Under the pieces are notes generated by a model, which was not told where the DNA came from, did not search any database, and saw nothing but the letters and a program-made list of their open reading frames with translations. Positions 14,288 through 59,648 of a stretch of 64,000 nucleotides of DNA are shown here, in pieces. Each line of letters opens with the position of its first letter. Position 1 is the first letter of the stretch. A program made the translations under genes and the position numbers. Source of the DNA: Fibrobacteria bacterium (GTDB lineage: Bacteria; Fibrobacterota; Fibrobacteria; UBA11236); assembly GCA_050486505.1 (NCBI GenBank), contig JBJHDK010000002.1:1292-65291 (forward strand), read 5' to 3'.

Positions 14288-14398
14288 GCCGGAAAGCATG
14301 GGGAACCCTGCCGGTTCCCCCTCCGTCGGGGTTTTCTTCACGGGGAACCCCCGAATCCCCCTGAAATTCTACCTTTGCCCGCTCTTCGGGCACCAGTA

Positions 14399-14475
14399 GC
14401 TCAGCTGGATAGAGCGTCGCCCTCCGAAGGCGAAGGTCACAGGTTCGACTCCTGTCTGGTGTACCACCTCACCCA
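14399..14475 (+). tRNA. tRNA-Arg (anticodon CCG)
   Basis: Folds by hand into a cloverleaf: acceptor GCACCAG/CTGGTGT, D-arm GCTC-AGCTGGATA-GAGC, anticodon loop CTCCGAA, T-arm ACAGG-TTCGACT-CCTGT, 3' ACCA. Confidence 0.85.
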
Positions 14476-18719: not shown

Positions 18720-18804
18720 ATCGCCCGCCCTCGTCCCGAAGAGCAGCGCGTGAACCCGCAGGTGAGTCTTCTGGCTTGCGGCGGGAACCCCTGTTGGGGG
18801 GATC

Positions 18805-18985
18805 CGGAAGTCTTCCGCCTTCCCGCCCGGCGCCCCGTTCCCCGAAGGGGGGGGATGGCCTGGACAGTGGCTGGCGCGCGCAGTTGCGGGCGCCGGGAAA
18901 ACATCAACCGCTTACAGCGACGAGCTCGCTCCCGATTCGCACGGGATTCCTCGTTATGCCCTTCCGAACCGTTCGGAGGGCTCCC
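18805..18985 (-). ncRNA. Cobalamin (adenosylcobalamin) riboswitch
   Basis: The minus strand reads ...AGGAATCCCGTGCGAATCGGGAGC...GCTGTAAGCGG...GCAACTG...GCCACTG...GGGAAGGC. This matches E. coli btuB leader blocks (AGGGAAUCCAGUGCGAAUCUGGAGCUGAC...GCAGCGGUAAGG) plus the B12 box GCCACTG and GGGAAGGC. Sits upstream of a TonB receptor. Confidence 0.8.
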
Positions 18986-19107
18986 TGTGAGCGAATGGAA
19001 TAGTAGTCAATGCGGATAGCGGGGCGTCAAACGGGCGACCCCACGGGTCGCCCGTACATGAATCGATGCCGAAGGAATGTAGGGCCGAGCCGCTGGCTCG
19101 CCCGAAA

Positions 19108-53792: not shown

Positions 53793-53867
53793 CGACACCC
53801 CTGTTCACCCCACCCGAAAGGACAACCCGTGACAGACGCGCATCCAACCCGAACGAAAGGGAAAGAC

Positions 53868-54749
53868 ATGGCACAGACCCCTCGAAATACATGGTCGCTG
53901 ACCACAATGACAATGGCATCGGCATTCGCATTGGCGCTTGCCGGATGCTTCAGCACCGACAACAAGAAGGAAGACGGTCCCGGTACCATCGAATTCCGCA
54001 TTCAGGGTGAAGACATTCCGTACCACAATCTTCTCGGTGAGGACGACCTCGGTTATGTGTACGCGGATTCGGCCACCATCGAGTATGCGTACATGATCGT
54101 GCGCTCGCCGAAGTTGAACCCCGCGGGACACGGCCACCATCACTCGCTCGCGAAGACCGGTGCGACGCTACATTCGGGTGTCAACCTTCCCGGTTTCTTC
54201 GCGGTCGATTTGCTGCAGGGGGCGACGCTCGGTACGGTTGAGGGCGTGGATCCGGGAAACTACGGGATCAACCCGGAGATCACGATCTATCCGGCCAATG
54301 CTTCGGAGCGGGCGGGAGACAACATGACGGATTTCAACGAAGCGCTGGCGCAGATCCCCGAGGGGTACTCTTTCCGGTTCGGCGGGATGTTGTACATGAA
54401 GGACACGGCCGTGGGCGCGGTGCGCTATGAGGTCCGCCAAAACGTCGCGGGCATCGTCTCGATCGAGGAGTTCCCCCCGGATGGGGGCGACGGCACGCCC
54501 CTCGTCGTGAGGCCCGGCAAAACCCTCGTGGCCAGCTTCCATCCGCACATCGATCATGCGCTGGAAGTGCTTGCGGATGAAAACCAACTGGATTGGGCGT
54601 CGTTGGAGATGTCGGGAGACACCGTGGTTTTTTCCCCCGCGACGAACAACCTCGTCCTGGTCGGTAGTGACAGCGTGAATATTTATCAGGCGCTCGAGGG
54701 CAAGATCAAGCAGGGCGACCACTGGGATGTAAACGTCATTCCGGATTGA
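53868..54749 (+). CDS. Hypothetical lipoprotein
   Basis: Lipobox LALAGC; contains a HGHHH stretch; immediately downstream of the receptor. Confidence 0.55.
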   Translation: MAQTPRNTWSLTTMTMASAFALALAGCFSTDNKKEDGPGTIEFRIQGEDIPYHNLLGEDDLGYVYADSATIEYAYMIVRSPKLNPAGHGHHHSLAKTGATLHSGVNLPGFFAVDLLQGATLGTVEGVDPGNYGINPEITIYPANASERAGDNMTDFNEALAQIPEGYSFRFGGMLYMKDTAVGAVRYEVRQNVAGIVSIEEFPPDGGDGTPLVVRPGKTLVASFHPHIDHALEVLADENQLDWASLEMSGDTVVFSPATNNLVLVGSDSVNIYQALEGKIKQGDHWDVNVIPD

Positions 54750-55794: not shown

Positions 55795-55894
55795 CTTCCC
55801 GAATTCACGCGCCGGATTGCAAGCCCTGCCTTATCTTAACCTTTGCCGGCCGCATGCAGCGGCGCGCGAAAGCACCGGACATCAAGGAGGCTCC

Positions 55895-56341
55895 ATGAGT
55901 GGACTCGTCGATCTCGGAAACCGCATCCTGAACATTGCACCATCCTGGTCCTGGCTGCCGCCCCTGCTGGCGCGTATCGCGATGGGCTGGGTATTTATCA
56001 CTTCGGGTCTCGGAAAGCTGCAAAACCTCGACAGGGTCACCGGCTTTTTCAACAGCCTCGGAATTCCGGCTCCCGGAGCGATGGCTCCTTTCGTCGGCAC
56101 GGTCGAACTTGTTGCCGGCGTGCTTCTGATCGCGGGACTCGCGACACGCCTCTCGGCCATTCCTCTCGTCATCATCATGGTCGTCGCGCTCCTGACCGCA
56201 ATCGGCCCGAGTGTCGAAGGACTGCGCGGGCTGTTCGGCACACAGGAATTTCTGTACGTCATCATGCTGATCTGGCTCATGGTCGCGGGCCCGGGCCCCG
56301 TCTCCATCGATTCGAAGGTATCCGGCAAATACCGAAGCTGA
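55895..56341 (+). CDS. DoxX family membrane protein
   Basis: Four TM helices, about 150 aa, DoxX-like. Confidence 0.75.
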   Translation: MSGLVDLGNRILNIAPSWSWLPPLLARIAMGWVFITSGLGKLQNLDRVTGFFNSLGIPAPGAMAPFVGTVELVAGVLLIAGLATRLSAIPLVIIMVVALLTAIGPSVEGLRGLFGTQEFLYVIMLIWLMVAGPGPVSIDSKVSGKYRS

Positions 56342-56463
56342 GAGGATCACCATCCACGCTTCCAGGAGCCGCCCCACCAGGGCGGCTTTTTTCTGCGTGT
56401 CCCGGCAAAATCCCCGAAAATCGCGCGGGTTGGCGAAGCCGACCCCCACCTCCAAAAAACCAC

Positions 56464-56489
56464 TTGACATTGAATTAGAATCATTCTAA
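56464..56489 (+). promoter_or_regulatory. Putative promoter (-35 TTGACA) overlapping a 7-1-7 inverted repeat TTAGAATcATTCTAA (PerR/Fur-box-like)
   Basis: Perfect 7-1-7 palindrome with the same geometry as Per boxes; ends 3 nt before the ATG of the Fur-family gene, suggesting leaderless autoregulated transcription. Confidence 0.55.
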
Positions 56490-56492
56490 ACT

Positions 56493-56909
56493 ATGGGCAT
56501 GGCACCGCTTCTCACCAAGCACCGCGAGACGATCCTCACCGTGGTTCAGTCCAGCAAGGACCACCCCACGGCGCGGCAGGTTTTCGAGCGTTCCCTGAAA
56601 AAGGATCCGCGCTTGAGCATGGCGACGGTGTACAACTCCCTGAACTTCCTGACGAGCGGGGGCTACATCCGCCGCATGGAAGCGGGCGAGGAAGGAACGC
56701 GCTACGACGGAATCCTCGCACGGCATGACCACCTGATCTGCCGCCAGTGCGGCCACATCGAAGACGTGGACGTTCTTCCCTCGGACAAGGCGCGCGTCGC
56801 GTCCTTCCCGCATTTCCAGGTCGAAGAGGTCACGCTACGTGTGACGGGACTGTGCGCCTCTTGCCGCAAGCAGTCCCGTCAAGGCAATGGAACCGCAATC
56901 ACGCCCTGA
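56493..56909 (+). CDS. Fur family transcriptional regulator (PerR-like)
   Basis: Winged-helix N-domain plus CRQCGH....C.SC metal-site motifs; sits next to dps and ahpC. Confidence 0.85.
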
Positions 56910-56926
56910 GTTTTTTTGGAATCACG

Positions 56927-56941
56927 TTAGAATTAGTCTAA
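56927..56941 (+). promoter_or_regulatory. Second Per-box-like 7-1-7 repeat TTAGAATtAGTCTAA upstream of dps paralog
   Basis: One mismatch from a perfect inverted repeat; 18 nt upstream of the dps2 start. Confidence 0.5.
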
Positions 56942-56958
56942 ATCAATTGGAGGTCCCC

Positions 56959-57435
56959 ATGAAAGCACCCACCATCCAGATCGGCATCAAGGAGGCGGAC
57001 CGCAAGAAGGTCGCCGAAGGGCTTTCCCGCGTGCTGGCCGACAGCTACACGCTTTACCTGAAAACGCACAACTTCCACTGGAACGTGACCGGTCCAATGT
57101 TCCAGACCTTGCACCTCATGTTCGAGGAGCAATACACGGAACTCGCCACGGCCGTGGACACCATCGCGGAGCGCATCCGCGCCCTCGGCTTCCCGGCCCC
57201 GGGAACCTACTCGGCATACGCGAAACTCTCCTCGATCTCAGAGGAAGAGGGCGTGCCCGAGGCGAAGGAAATGATCCGCTTGCTCGTGCAGGGAAACGAG
57301 GCCGTCGCCCGTACGGCGCGCGAAACCTTCCCCGCCGCGGAGAAGGCCGGAGACGAACCCACCGCCGACCTGCTGACCCAGCGCATGCAGGTCCACGAGA
57401 AAACCGCGTGGATGCTGCGGTCGCTGCTGGAATAG
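56959..57435 (+). CDS. dps: Dps paralog (about 75% aa identity to the copy at 48229)
   Basis: Nearly identical core and C-terminus to the first Dps; RBS GGAGG upstream. Confidence 0.95.
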
Positions 57436-57513
57436 ATGTGCAGGGGCGACGCATGCGTCGCCCTCAACAGAGAGCCAACCACACAGAGTCACCCAAACGA
57501 AAGGATCCATCAC

Positions 57514-58101
57514 ATGTCAACCCTCGTCACCAAACCCGCGCCCGCGTTCAAGGCCAAGGCCGTGCTGCCCGACGGCAGCTTCGGCGAAGTCGACCTCGCA
57601 CAGTACCGCGGCAAGCACGTCATCGTGTATTTCTACCCGCTGGCGTTCACCTTCGTGTGTCCGACCGAAATCATCGCCTTCGACAAGAAGATCGAGGAGT
57701 TCAAGGCGCGCGGCTGTGAAATCGTCGGCGTCTCCGTCGACTCGCACCACACCCTCGCGGCCTGGCGCAACACGCCGGTCAAGGAGGGCGGCATCGGCGC
57801 CATCCGTCACCCGGTGGTGTCCGACCTGAACAAGCAGATCGCACGTGACTACGGCATCCTCTTCAACGAGGAAGTCGCCCTGCGCGGACTGTTCCTGATC
57901 GACAAGGAGGGCGTCGTGCGCCACGCGCTGGTGAACGACCTGCCGCTCGGCCGCAGTGTGGATGAAGCCATCCGCACGCTCGACGCACTGCAGTTCTTCG
58001 AGGAGAACGGCGAAGTCTGCCCGGCCAACTGGCACAAGGGCGACGAGGCCATCAAGGAAACCCGCGACTCCGTGGGTGCGTACCTGGCGAAGTCGGCCTG
58101 A
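57514..58101 (+). CDS. ahpC: Peroxiredoxin, AhpC/Tsa typical 2-Cys family
   Basis: FTFVCPTE peroxidatic Cys and C-terminal resolving Cys (VCPANW). Confidence 0.9.
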   Translation: MSTLVTKPAPAFKAKAVLPDGSFGEVDLAQYRGKHVIVYFYPLAFTFVCPTEIIAFDKKIEEFKARGCEIVGVSVDSHHTLAAWRNTPVKEGGIGAIRHPVVSDLNKQIARDYGILFNEEVALRGLFLIDKEGVVRHALVNDLPLGRSVDEAIRTLDALQFFEENGEVCPANWHKGDEAIKETRDSVGAYLAKSA

Positions 58102-58242
58102 CCCTTCCGGTCTTCCGCACGCTTTCGACGAAAGTGATGCGGGGGACCCCCTGTAAGCAAGCCTGCCCCCGCGCTGCGACTACGGAGACAAAGCGGGGGC
58201 GCAACGGAGGGGGCCGGAGCCAATTCGGTTCTCCGTTGCCAG

Positions 58243-58282
58243 GAGGCTCCGGATCCGTCCGGAGCCTCCACCGTTTTCGCCC
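58243..58282 (+). terminator. Putative terminator hairpin after ahpC
   Basis: GGAGGCTCCGGA tccg TCCGGAGCCTCC followed by ACCGTTTTCGCC; weak U-tract. Confidence 0.45.
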
Positions 58283-58350
58283 GTCGCAGCGCACGAAGCC
58301 GCGGCGGATACTTATGATGTTTGCGTTCGCCCGCGAAAGGAAGTGCGCGC

Positions 58351-59133
58351 ATGGACATTTTCTGGATCGCGGTCCTGGCCAGCCTTGCCGCGGGCGCCGC
58401 CACGGGACTTGGGGCGCTTCCGGTTCTTTTCTTCCGCACACTGTCCGCACGCATGCGCGACGGGTTCCTCGGCTTCAGCGCAGGCGTCATGCTCGCGGCG
58501 TCGGCGTTCTCCCTGATCATCCCCGGAATCGAAGCCGCTTCGGAGCGCACGGGCACGACGATCGCCGCGGTCATCGTCGGTGCGGGGATCCTGCTGGGCG
58601 GCGGCTTCGTTTGGTTGATCCACGCCTTGGTGCCGCACGAGCACTTCGTGAAGGGGGCGGAAGGGACGACGGTTGCCGAGGCCCGCAAAATCCGTCGCAT
58701 CTGGCTGTTCATCCTCGCCATCGCGGTCCACAACCTTCCCGAGGGACTGGCCGTCGGCGTCGGATTCGGAGGAGAAAACATCGGAAACGGAGTCGCCCTC
58801 GCCATCGGCATCGGGCTGCAAAACCTGCCCGAGGGTTTCGCTGTGGCGGTCGCATTGTTGGGAATCAAGGGAATGACGCCCTGGAGGGCGGCAGGCATCG
58901 CTTTGCTGACGGGCCTGCTCGAGCCCGTGGGCGGAGCGATCGGCGCCGGGCTTGTGACGACGTCGGTCCTGCTGCTTCCGTGGGGACTCGCCTTCGCGGC
59001 CGGGGCGATGCTCTTCGTCATCAGCAACGAGATCATCCCGGAGACTCACGCGCAGGGGAACGAGCGCGAGGCCACTGCAGGCCTCATGATCGGCTTCGTC
59101 GTGATGATGGTTCTCGATGTGACCTTGGGCTGA
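58351..59133 (+). CDS. zupT: ZIP family zinc/metal transporter
   Basis: HNLPEGLAVG and QNLPEGFAV ZIP signature helices. Confidence 0.85.
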   Translation: MDIFWIAVLASLAAGAATGLGALPVLFFRTLSARMRDGFLGFSAGVMLAASAFSLIIPGIEAASERTGTTIAAVIVGAGILLGGGFVWLIHALVPHEHFVKGAEGTTVAEARKIRRIWLFILAIAVHNLPEGLAVGVGFGGENIGNGVALAIGIGLQNLPEGFAVAVALLGIKGMTPWRAAGIALLTGLLEPVGGAIGAGLVTTSVLLLPWGLAFAAGAMLFVISNEIIPETHAQGNEREATAGLMIGFVVMMVLDVTLG

Positions 59134-59168: not shown

Positions 59169-59648
59169 CTAGTGCCCGTGGTGGCGGTGGTAGAAGTCGT
59201 CGGGATCGGGCGGCGCGATGCCGCGGAGGGTTTCCTGGAGCATGATGGCGACTTCGATCAGGGTGTTCATGCGCAGCCGCGCCTCTTCGGACTCCTCATC
59301 CTCAGGAAAGGGCGCGAGACAATCGCGTAGTTCGCAATACCGCACGGCGCGCGCATAGGCATCCGGGAACGCCCTGCGATGACGTTCGAGAAACGCCATG
59401 CCGACATGGATGAAGGCCTCGGGCTGGTAATGCCCGTCAAGCACTTCCTCCGCTTTCTTCGAAGCCTGCACCACCCGGTAATCCGCATGCCAGTACCATG
59501 TGGCTACCGCCGCGATCAGTGCAACCACCAGACCGTATACCAGGTGGATTCCCTGCCTGTTTCCGGATCGGGGAGGCAGGGTCAGGGCCGTGATCAACAC
59601 AAACGCAGCCGTTGCCGCCACGGTCACGATCAACAAAGATGAATTCAT
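59169..59648 (-). CDS. Hypothetical membrane protein
   Basis: Two N-terminal TM helices; C-terminal His-rich tail (YHRHHGH). Confidence 0.5.

Follow-up and report, generated by a model that had tools for sequence, protein, structure and literature searches.

Is the Fur-family gene that precedes dps and a peroxiredoxin gene in this Fibrobacteria genome the switch of a peroxide-stress regulon, and how is its own expression set? The locus lies in a window of 64 kb, the whole stretch of DNA that was analysed, with a GC content of about 63%. We consider it probable that the locus is a PerR-type peroxide-stress regulon, composed of a repressor, an autoregulatory box, and dps and peroxiredoxin genes as targets. 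As judged from the sequence, the leaderless repressor gene and the adjacent dps-peroxiredoxin genes are most likely all silenced by the PerR-type repressor itself, via a 15-bp palindrome that overlaps both promoters. The features on which the argument is built are, in the order of their positions:

56364 to 56392, plus strand: intrinsic terminator of doxX, a GC-rich stem (GCCGCCC/GGGCGGC) followed by U6
56464 to 56469, plus strand: -35 hexamer TTGACA of perR, from the promoter scan
56475 to 56489, plus strand: operator 1, the perfect 7-1-7 palindrome TTAGAATCATTCTAA, extending over the spacer of the promoter and 3 nt into the -10 hexamer
56487 to 56492, plus strand: -10 hexamer TAAACT of perR, from the promoter scan, overlapping the right end of operator 1
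56499 to 56909, plus strand: perR, PerR-type Fur-family repressor, 136 aa counted from the conserved start (database version P0001: start at 56493, 138 aa)
56916 to 56944, plus strand: putative dps promoter, -35-like TTGGAA (56916-56921), 17-nt spacer, -10-like TAAATC (56939-56944)
56927 to 56941, plus strand: operator 2, dps-proximal, the one-mismatch copy TTAGAATTAGTCTAA
56959 to 57435, plus strand: dps, DNA-protecting ferritin-like protein, 158 aa (Pfam Ferritin, 1.1e-27)
57444 to 57463, plus strand: perfect GC palindrome of 20 nt, GGGCGACGCATGCGTCGCCC, forming a 9-bp stem-loop without a U tract
57514 to 58101, plus strand: prx, typical 2-Cys peroxiredoxin of the AhpC/Prx1 type, 195 aa (Pfam AhpC-TSA and 1-cysPrx_C)
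58242 to 58279, plus strand: terminator-like 12-bp hairpin followed by ACCGUUUUCG

The three open reading frames match the Pfam families FUR, Ferritin-like (Dps) and AhpC-TSA, in agreement with the family calls of the initial annotation for dps and ahpC. For the regulator, the Fur-family domain is recognised with 83.4 bits at a cut-off of 23.1 (PF01475), and the top NCBIfam models are PerR models (NF047406, 97.6 bits; NF052545, 86 bits), whereas Fur models reach at most 65.6 bits and the Irr models 43.8 and 43.3 bits. The curated cut-offs of the two PerR models, 200 and 180 bits, respectively, were missed; such a shortfall is expected for a protein from a distant phylum, since these models are lineage-specific equivalogs. 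The closest solved structure is PerR of B. subtilis (2fe3), and the alignment with it is free of gaps. Two CxxC pairs of the regulator (C83, C86, C121 and C124) align with C96/C99 and C136/C139 of the B. subtilis protein, and N48 aligns with N61 of the recognition helix, a residue that has a role in the specificity for the box. Moreover, H24, D72, H78, H80 and D91 occupy the positions of H37, D85, H91, H93 and D104. The regulatory site of PerR is made up of His37, Asp85, His91, His93 and Asp104 in B. subtilis numbering (PMC4866751), whereas Fur proteins carry a Glu at the position of Asp104 (PMC4866751). The metal ligands, the N48 position and the Cys4 site are invariant among 22 aligned homologues, and among 80 related loci of the Fibrobacterota and Acidobacteriota, 78 to 80 keep them; the position of Asp104, Asp91 in our regulator, is an Asp in 78 of the 80. 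According to these alignments, all five regulatory-metal ligands of PerR, the Cys4 zinc site and the PerR-type Asn are retained, and the earlier designation of the protein as a PerR-like Fur-family regulator was borne out by the conservation of all PerR ligands.

The two boxes are no chance occurrence. A check of the sequence recovered TTGACA, the perfect 7-1-7 palindrome, its one-mismatch copy and the GC palindrome where the initial annotation had placed them: the last base of operator 1 is located 3 nt ahead of the ATG at 56493, and that of operator 2 is located 18 nt ahead of the A of the dps ATG (56959). With up to three mismatches allowed, operators 1 and 2 are the only matches in the 64-kb window (0.27 expected), so that no box marks any further regulon member there at this threshold; with at most one mismatch, no match was obtained in any of 100 shuffles (0 expected). 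This excludes a chance origin. In 77 of the 80 related loci, the gene orthologous to the regulator is directly preceded by a box with up to two mismatches, which supports the proposed autoregulation via a Per-type 7-1-7 box. In the flanks of about 8 kb of these loci, other boxes with up to two mismatches were found only ahead of dps in close relatives, in L017 (downstream of the regulator gene) and in L067 (a second copy upstream). The second box ahead of dps is shared by the closest relatives L001-L004 and L006, and the variant TTAGAATTAGTCTAA of operator 2 is identical to the autoregulatory box of five other loci (L015, L016, L018, L029 and L033). The G at position 4 is kept in 85 and the C at position 12 in 83 of 86 sites, and in the phylogenetic footprint of the perR promoter region only TTG, the box and the ATG are invariant. 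The operator consensus of the regulator, as predicted from these alignments, is the 15-bp palindrome TTAGAATnATTCTAA.

It had also been noted that the half-site TTAGAAT differs by one base from TTATAAT of the Bacillus box. The difference, G4/C12, is present; it is not a novelty, as it is known in streptococcal Per boxes. By its sequence the box belongs to a known type: it agrees with the Per-box consensus of streptococci, with the core of the Irr element of alpha-proteobacteria and with the putative Fur box of Riemerella. When the literature was searched with the exact palindrome strings, only the Riemerella Fur paper matched, and a search for a study of PerR in Fibrobacter gave nothing relevant. 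In metagenomes, the exact box adjoins dps, rubrerythrin, rubrerythrin-VIT1, katG, peroxiredoxin and PerR/Irr-like genes. Since the same palindrome core is used by iron and heme sensors (Riemerella Fur and Irr), the box alone is no proof of peroxide sensing.

The promoter of perR is well delimited. The gene upstream is doxX (Pfam DoxX), and its terminator, which folds with -27.9 kcal/mol (z = -4.2, a stability reached by none of 200 shuffles), insulates perR from transcription arriving from upstream. The promoter scan revealed TTGACA-17-TAAACT with 10 of 12 matches. The TTG of the -35 hexamer is invariant in nine Fibrobacterota loci, the -10 hexamer is kept as TAA(A/T)(C/T)T in the relatives, and the exact string TTGACA-N5-box is found in L001-L006 and L081. 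An alternative -10 hexamer, TAGAAT in the left half-site, was rejected because no conserved -35 element is located at the right distance, neither in the window nor in the relatives. At the perR-dps-prx locus, an Rfam scan of the whole window at the gathering thresholds identified no known riboswitch or sRNA.

The regulator gene had been proposed to be transcribed without a leader. This idea is supported by the fixed distance of 9 to 10 nt between the box and the ATG in 14 loci (9/9 Fibrobacterota, 5/5 Blastocatellia); the ATG, however, is the one at 56499 rather than that at 56493. All 22 aligned homologues start at this second ATG, with a common MA(P/A)LLTKHR. Its distance from the -10 hexamer TAAACT is exactly 7 nt, whereas the ATG at 56493 lies 1 nt after the hexamer and could thus not be part of a transcript from the TTGACA-17-TAAACT promoter. 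To judge from the alignment, the true start codon is probably the second ATG and not the first one. Between the -10 hexamer and this ATG, each of the nine Fibrobacterota loci has a spacer of 6 nt, variable in sequence and devoid of a Shine-Dalgarno sequence, and this fixed spacer suggests that the perR mRNA is leaderless; the arrangement supports a predicted transcription start at the A of the ATG 56499. We regard it as unlikely that perR is not leaderless, i.e. that transcription starts elsewhere, that translation begins at 56493 or after a short leader, and that TTGACA-17-TAAACT is coincidental. Such a view could point to the database protein, which is annotated from 56493 (P0001, 138 aa), to the upstream in-frame ATG that occurs in L004 as well and the GTG in L001 and L002, and to most Pyrinomonadaceae orthologues, which have a leader of 13 to 28 nt and a different promoter register. 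However, the upstream in-frame codon is not conserved, unlike the common protein start, the exact TTGACA-N5-box string and the 6-nt spacing without any purine-rich Shine-Dalgarno sequence, and transcription reading in from upstream is disfavoured by the strong terminator at a distance of 70 nt. Moreover, perR is the only gene with a strong -35/-10/ATG arrangement of this kind in the 64-kb window; a weaker match at 54210 lies inside the open reading frame 53829-54749. Leaderless starts as a general trait of the host were rejected on the same count.

How are the downstream genes reached? In seven Fibrobacterota loci, dps is the next gene after perR. Its product has Dps as the best NCBIfam model, with a score below the cut-off of that model, and the gene is preceded by a Shine-Dalgarno sequence, GGAGG, at 56949-56953. 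Upstream of dps, a T/A tract, a -35-like hexamer, the box and TAAATC are conserved in L001-L004 and L006. The putative promoter was read from the sequence and was not reported by the stricter consensus promoter scan; its -35 hexamer is poor, and a start 7 nt past TAAATC would land in the Shine-Dalgarno sequence and leave a leader of only about 8 nt. The assignment of a dps promoter is thus a weak one. A terminator between perR and dps was considered and rejected: there is no hairpin (z = +2.0), and the U7 tract alone does not make a terminator. Relatives among the Fibrobacterota retain the gene order perR-dps-prx, with prx next after dps in L002, L004, L006 and L007, and about 50 loci of Acidobacteriota have perR-prx. 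L007 has only one box, and its perR gene runs into dps, the stop codon of the former overlapping the ATG of the latter.

The third gene had been called ahpC. Its product is indeed a 2-Cys peroxiredoxin of the AhpC/Prx1 type, and the translation contains the motifs FVCPTE and VCPANW; the AhpC identity proper does not hold, since the protein misses the cut-off of the AhpC equivalog TIGR03137 (144 vs 272 bits) and no ahpF gene is located immediately downstream of prx, where a gene for a ZIP/ZupT-like transporter follows. Against the NCBIfam model 'peroxiredoxin C', 229 bits were obtained at a cut-off of 301. No box of its own with up to three mismatches serves prx in the 64-kb window, and its transcription is most likely due to read-through from dps. 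Between the dps stop codon (57435) and the prx ATG (57514), the perfect GC palindrome reported ahead of the ahpC-like gene could be confirmed at 57444-57463. It folds with -18.7 kcal/mol (z = -2.7); a role in partial termination or, as a hairpin, in the stabilisation of an mRNA 3' end is probable. The element is absent from this position in L002, L006 and L007, and L004 has different hairpins; by this comparison it is lineage-specific. As it is present in a single copy in the window and not conserved in relatives, it was rejected as a repeated (REP-like) or conserved regulatory element. The hairpin at 58242-58279 (-29.7 kcal/mol, z = -3.2; none of 200 shuffles was as stable) probably terminates the transcription unit of dps-prx or of perR-dps-prx.

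Based on these observations, we propose the following model. As suggested by the conserved residues, the regulator would be a metal-loaded dimeric PerR-type repressor; the Cys4 residues would bind a structural zinc, and His24, Asp72, His78, His80 and Asp91 would make up the regulatory site for Fe/Mn. By analogy to PerR of B. subtilis, peroxide would oxidise the iron-bound histidines, and the repressor would leave the DNA. It would bind TTAGAATnATTCTAA, and at perR, in the layout TTGACA-N5-box, this sequence fills the spacer between the -35 and -10 hexamers as well as the first three bases of the latter. Since the box overlaps the perR promoter, bound repressor would exclude RNA polymerase, resulting in negative autoregulation. 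The second promoter-like element ahead of dps, TTGGAA-17-TAAATC, carries the one-mismatch box in the same register as the perR promoter. The perR mRNA would begin with the A of the ATG 56499, and its translation would involve neither a leader nor a Shine-Dalgarno sequence. As there is no terminator between perR and dps, the latter would probably be expressed by read-through from perR and from its own promoter, and prx, devoid of a box, would be co-transcribed with dps. The GC hairpin without a U tract may reduce the expression of prx relative to dps, and the transcription unit would stop at the hairpin and U tract at about 58242-58279. The boxed dps gene and prx downstream of it are the peroxide-defence candidates seen in these 64 kb of the genome.

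Could a signal other than peroxide control the locus? If the regulator were an iron-sensing Fur protein and the palindrome a Fur box of the Fibrobacterota-Chlorobi-Bacteroidota (FCB) group, iron would control dps and prx. We regard this as improbable, even though Fibrobacterota belong to the same superphylum as Bacteroidota and the proposed Fur box of Riemerella anatipestifer is ATTTAGAATTATTCTAAAT, with Fur shifting iron-uptake promoter fragments that carry this sequence (PMC5609570). In lower-GC metagenome contigs, moreover, the exact box adjoins FeoA-FeoB and a periplasmic binding protein, a TonB-dependent receptor, heme oxygenase and a SufS-like gene. However, the regulator and its orthologues have an Asp at the position of Asp104, where Fur proteins carry a Glu (PMC4866751), and an Asp at that of Asp85, in 78 to 80 of 80 loci. 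The higher scores of the PerR models as compared to the Fur models speak against Fur as well. Finally, the boxed genes are here only those for the regulator and Dps, with the peroxiredoxin gene next to them, the linkage of regulator and peroxiredoxin holds in two phyla, and no iron-uptake gene with a box (up to three mismatches) was found in the 64-kb window.

Even less can be said for an Irr-like sensor of heme or iron limitation that acts via the iron control element (ICE), an explanation that we hold to be very improbable. The core of our box, TTAGAA-N3-TTCTAA, is identical to that of the ICE consensus TTTAGAA-N3-TTCTAAA (PMC1698941). The left flanking T is absent from the window, which reads aTTAGAA, and L001 carries the full TTTAGAATCATTCTAAA. 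There are weak matches to the NCBIfam Irr models, and exact boxes adjoin rubrerythrin-VIT1 (MbfA-like) and rubrerythrin genes, which are typical Irr targets. The Irr scores of 43 to 44 bits are, however, far from the cut-offs of 150 to 170 and below those of the PerR models. The hallmarks of Irr are an HHH heme-binding motif or a Cys-Pro heme regulatory motif and the absence of the Cys4 site; the B. japonicum-type protein has the Cys-Pro motif and is not known to have the Cys4 site. In contrast, our regulator keeps both CxxC pairs, has HDH at positions 78-80 rather than the HHH motif, and its translation contains no Cys-Pro in the N-terminal region. Moreover, Irr in published work is alpha-proteobacterial, whereas the lineage of the host is Fibrobacterota-like. 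The PerR-type repressor remains the preferred reading.

The locus is most likely an ordinary peroxide-stress switch that confirms the textbook mechanism and does not reveal a new one. The analysis yields a well-supported annotation of regulatory elements in uncultured high-GC Fibrobacterota that extends to Blastocatellia and Pyrinomonadaceae, lineages without a characterised regulon: the operator consensus with its nearly invariant G4/C12, two promoter registers and a corrected start codon. One palindrome serves peroxide-, heme- and iron-type Fur-family regulators in different phyla. As it is common to different types of sensors, the transfer of regulons across phyla based on the motif requires the ligand signature of the protein, too. 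It is tempting to speculate, though rather doubtful at this point, that TTAGAA-N3-TTCTAA is the ancestral operator of a deep PerR/Irr/FCB-Fur branch that was kept in at least four phyla while the signal diverged to peroxide, heme and iron. On this view, the compact module would be a feedback unit of old age that is shared among phyla and not a peculiarity of the locus; in it, the operator would be fused to the -10 region of a leaderless regulator gene, so that one element of 35 bp would serve as promoter, operator and translation start.

The closest known system is PerR of B. subtilis. The two regulators share the Fur-family fold, the Cys4 zinc site, identical regulatory ligands and the Asn at the position of N61, with an identity of about 30 to 35% as estimated by eye from the alignment. 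In both cases, a 7-1-7 palindrome is placed over the promoter; a Dps homologue and a peroxiredoxin among the targets, as well as control of the regulator by itself, are known for B. subtilis and predicted for the window. The B. subtilis regulon comprises mrgA (dps), ahpCF, katA and perR. Compared with the B. subtilis Per box TTATAATnATTATAA, the boxes in the window have G/C instead of T/A at positions 4 and 12. Moreover, perR, dps and prx are clustered here in one locus, perR is predicted to be leaderless, and there is neither an ahpF gene beside prx nor a catalase gene nearby. In group A Streptococcus, a bacterium that differs from the host in phylum and GC content, the Per-box consensus reads TTANAATNATTNTAA; gel shifts with PerR were obtained for fragments of the ahpC and pmtA promoters that contain TTAGAAT half-sites (PMC2518855). 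Operator 1 fits this consensus perfectly and operator 2 with one mismatch; TTAGAAT is confined to one half of the streptococcal sites, whereas the boxes of the window have G4/C12 in both halves, positions that are nearly invariant across the 86 sites. A leaderless transcript of a PerR-like regulator is also known for mycobacterial furA. The same architecture is found for perR of Leptospira interrogans, where a start 0 to 1 nt from the coding sequence was mapped by RNA-seq and 5' RACE (PMC5243855), whereas it is inferred here from the sequence; the operator and the gene context differ. The alpha-proteobacterial Irr proteins, also of the Fur family, share the operator core (PMC1698941). The NCBIfam Irr and PerR models both score on Fur-family proteins next to boxes, and these matches suggest that Irr and PerR are related. 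Our regulator keeps the Cys4 site and the PerR-type sensing residues and fails the cut-offs of the Irr models, and Irr senses heme or iron and is not known to have the Cys4 site or the sensing chemistry of PerR. Finally, the palindrome is identical to the Fur box of Riemerella anatipestifer, a member of the Bacteroidota; there, the box controls iron-uptake genes via Fur (PMC5609570), whereas in the window it precedes the regulator gene and dps, and the regulator carries the PerR-type Asp ligands.

Features of the perR region (coordinates, strand, description)
55817-56341, +, DoxX-family membrane protein gene directly upstream of perR
56364-56392, +, strong intrinsic terminator ending the DoxX-family gene (-27.9 kcal/mol, z = -4.2)
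56464-56469, +, TTGACA, -35 hexamer of the perR promoter
56475-56489, +, box 1, perfect 7-1-7 palindrome TTAGAATCATTCTAA, 3 nt between its end and the ATG at 56493
56927-56941, +, box 2, one-mismatch copy TTAGAATTAGTCTAA, its last base lying 18 nt upstream of the A in the dps start codon (56959)
57444-57463, +, perfect 20-nt GC palindrome between dps and the next gene
58242-58279, +, 12-bp hairpin plus UUUU on the 3' side of the peroxiredoxin gene
58321-59133, +, ZIP/ZupT-like metal transporter gene after the peroxiredoxin gene, behind the terminator-like hairpin

TTGACA, the palindrome, its one-mismatch copy and the GC palindrome all lie where the initial annotation had placed them, and the three ORFs have Pfam matches to FUR, to Ferritin-like, and to AhpC-TSA plus 1-cysPrx_C, respectively. 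Boxes 1 and 2 are the only matches with up to three mismatches in the 64-kb window (0.27 expected; GC content about 63%), and none of 100 shuffles had any match with at most one mismatch: The box observation is real and chance is excluded. A search of one genome per species gave 80 related loci around the orthologous regulator gene. Fibrobacterota MAGs come nearest (L001-L007 with 64-84% identity, L013 with 48%), and most of the others are Acidobacteriota (Blastocatellia, Pyrinomonadaceae; 36-54%). Of these 80 loci, 77 have a box with up to two mismatches immediately 5' to the regulator gene, which argues for the autoregulation via a Per-type box that had been proposed. Other boxes at this threshold occur in the flanks of about 8 kb only in L001-L004 and L006, where the second box stands before dps as in the window, in L017 (downstream of the regulator gene) and in L067 (a second copy upstream). 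Across 86 sites, G4 is kept in 85 and C12 in 83, and when the upstream regions of nine Fibrobacterota loci are aligned, nothing but the TTG of the -35 region, the box and the ATG is invariant. The box 2 variant is the autoregulatory box of five Acidobacteriota loci and is therefore a tolerated operator variant. Two records labelled 'uncultured Bifidobacterium sp.' (L004, L005) share synteny with the Fibrobacterota loci (77-78% identity), and two labelled 'uncultured Clostridia bacterium' (L010, L011) have loci that are nearly identical to those of Blastocatellia; these titles look like taxonomic mislabels of MAGs.

A consensus promoter scan identified TTGACA-17-TAAACT (10/12 matches), ending at 56492, upstream of perR. 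Box 1 occupies the spacer from 5 nt past the -35 hexamer and covers the first three bases of the -10 region; a repressor bound there would occlude RNA polymerase. The idea of a leaderless perR transcript is retained, with the start codon and the predicted transcription start moved from 56493 to 56499: All 22 aligned homologues start at MA(P/A)LLTKHR, i. e. at this second ATG, the A of which is exactly 7 nt past the -10 region. The distance from box to ATG is fixed at 9 nt in all nine Fibrobacterota and at 9-10 nt in all five Blastocatellia loci. The 6 nt between the -10 region and the ATG are variable (ATGGGC, GTGTCC, CTGTGT, ATACCC, AATCTC, CTCCCC, TCTTTA) and contain no Shine-Dalgarno sequence in the nine Fibrobacterota loci. 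Since the upstream ATG is only 1 nt past the -10 region, where it is not conserved, and the homologues share the later start, the public annotation of the regulator from 56493 (P0001, 138 amino acids) is probably two codons too long (56493-56498). This arrangement of -35, -10 and ATG is the only strong one in the 64-kb window; a weaker match at 54210 lies within another ORF. In most Pyrinomonadaceae loci (among L019-L080), the gap between TTGACA and the box is 10 nt instead of 5 nt, which puts the -10 region, TATTCT, inside the box; a leader of 13-28 nt follows. The operator has been conserved while the surrounding promoter shifted. The predicted leaderless, operator-fused perR promoter is conserved and tidy but has a precedent: In Leptospira interrogans, the perR transcription start was placed experimentally 0-1 nt from the coding sequence (PMC5243855).

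The proposal of a PerR-like regulator is borne out by the protein. Its top NCBIfam models are two PerR equivalogs (97.6 and 86 bits, as compared to at most 65.6 bits for Fur and 43.8 bits for Irr); none of these scores reaches the respective cut-off, which is to be expected in so distant a phylum. Among solved structures, B. subtilis PerR (2fe3) is the best match, and in a gap-free alignment H24, D72, H78, H80 and D91 correspond to the regulatory site H37, D85, H91, H93 and D104, in which Fur proteins have Glu instead of Asp104 (PMC4866751). Moreover, N48 corresponds to N61 in the recognition helix, and two CxxC pairs to C96/C99 and C136/C139. None of these residues varies across the 22 homologues, and 78-80 of the 80 related loci retain them. 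The assignment to the PerR type, made from sequence, relies on this ligand signature and on the target genes; the box alone cannot assign the signal.

The order perR-dps-prx is retained in the Fibrobacterota relatives. L007 has a single box, and its perR stop codon and dps ATG overlap (ATGA); in L013 the two genes are 44 nt apart, with a Shine-Dalgarno sequence but without a box in between. In its simplest form, the system is therefore a single operon. In the window, box 2 lies in the same register within a weaker promoter-like element (TTGGAA-17-TAAATC, 56916-56944), and relatives repeat the T/A tract, the -35-like hexamer, the box and TAAATC before dps. A dps start placed 7 nt past TAAATC would land within the GGAGG Shine-Dalgarno sequence, and the leader from this putative promoter would be very short both in the window and in L006. 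Folding revealed no hairpin between perR and dps (z = +2.0), so read-through from the perR promoter probably contributes to dps expression as well.

No box of its own precedes the peroxiredoxin gene. The gene does follow the GC palindrome, as had been stated, but its product is a typical 2-Cys peroxiredoxin (FVCPTE and VCPANW motifs) that scores 144 bits against the AhpC equivalog (cut-off 272), and no ahpF follows; it is not the AhpC of an AhpCF system. The palindrome forms a 9-bp stem (-18.7 kcal/mol) that lacks a U tract, occurs once in the window, and is absent from L002, L006 and L007, while L004 has unrelated hairpins at this position. It is specific to this lineage and most plausibly acts as a partial terminator or by stabilising the mRNA 3' end as a hairpin. 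About 50 Acidobacteriota loci have a peroxiredoxin gene right after that of the regulator, and this recurrent pairing with peroxide defence in two phyla supports a role in peroxide stress.

The ZIP/ZupT-like gene, also found in L004 (2260-3063) and L005 (5756-6466), is reminiscent of zosA and pmtA, metal transporters under PerR control in the Firmicutes; in the window it has no box. A DoxX gene immediately precedes perR in several Fibrobacterota relatives (L001, L003, L005) as well, and on an unrelated metagenome contig (L102:6175, 41% GC) the exact box stands 12 nt before such a gene. In some lineages, DoxX may be a member of such a regulon; the window has a terminator between the two genes. 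Downstream of the transporter gene lies a 159-aa ORF without Pfam match (59169-59648, -). Unrelated to perR, the window contains a cobalamin riboswitch (18744-19003, -; RF00174, 67.6 bits) and, as its sole tRNA gene, tRNA-Arg (CCG; 14390-14466, +).

The initial interpretation is essentially right, and the Per-type box is real; it belongs, however, to known classes and does not represent a new type of operator. It agrees with the Per-box consensus of group A Streptococcus, TTANAATNATTNTAA, where PerR shifted ahpC and pmtA promoter fragments carrying TTAGAAT half-sites (PMC2518855); its core is the alpha-proteobacterial iron control element of Irr, TTTAGAA-N3-TTCTAAA (PMC1698941); and the box is identical to the proposed Fur box of Riemerella anatipestifer, ATTTAGAATTATTCTAAAT (PMC5609570). 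An exact-box search of metagenome contigs gave at least 120 loci. Among the matches listed, on contigs of at least 50% GC the box adjoins dps (at least three), rubrerythrin (at least four), rubrerythrin-VIT1 (at least two), katG (at least one), peroxiredoxin (at least two) and PerR/Irr-like Fur-family genes (at least three), and on lower-GC contigs also FeoAB, a TonB-dependent receptor, heme oxygenase and a SufS-like gene. On one contig (L095:524-538, 44% GC) it lies between divergent FeoA-FeoB and periplasmic-binding-protein genes, an iron-uptake context; on another (L156:1900-1946, 33% GC) two exact TTAGAATTATTCTAA boxes, separated by 32 bp, precede a rubrerythrin gene, and in L157 and L158 a degenerate second box directly follows the first. 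The palindrome therefore serves peroxide-, heme- and iron-type regulators, depending on the lineage. The finding is a probable PerR regulon of an uncultured, Fibrobacterota-like lineage, a new system of an already known kind.
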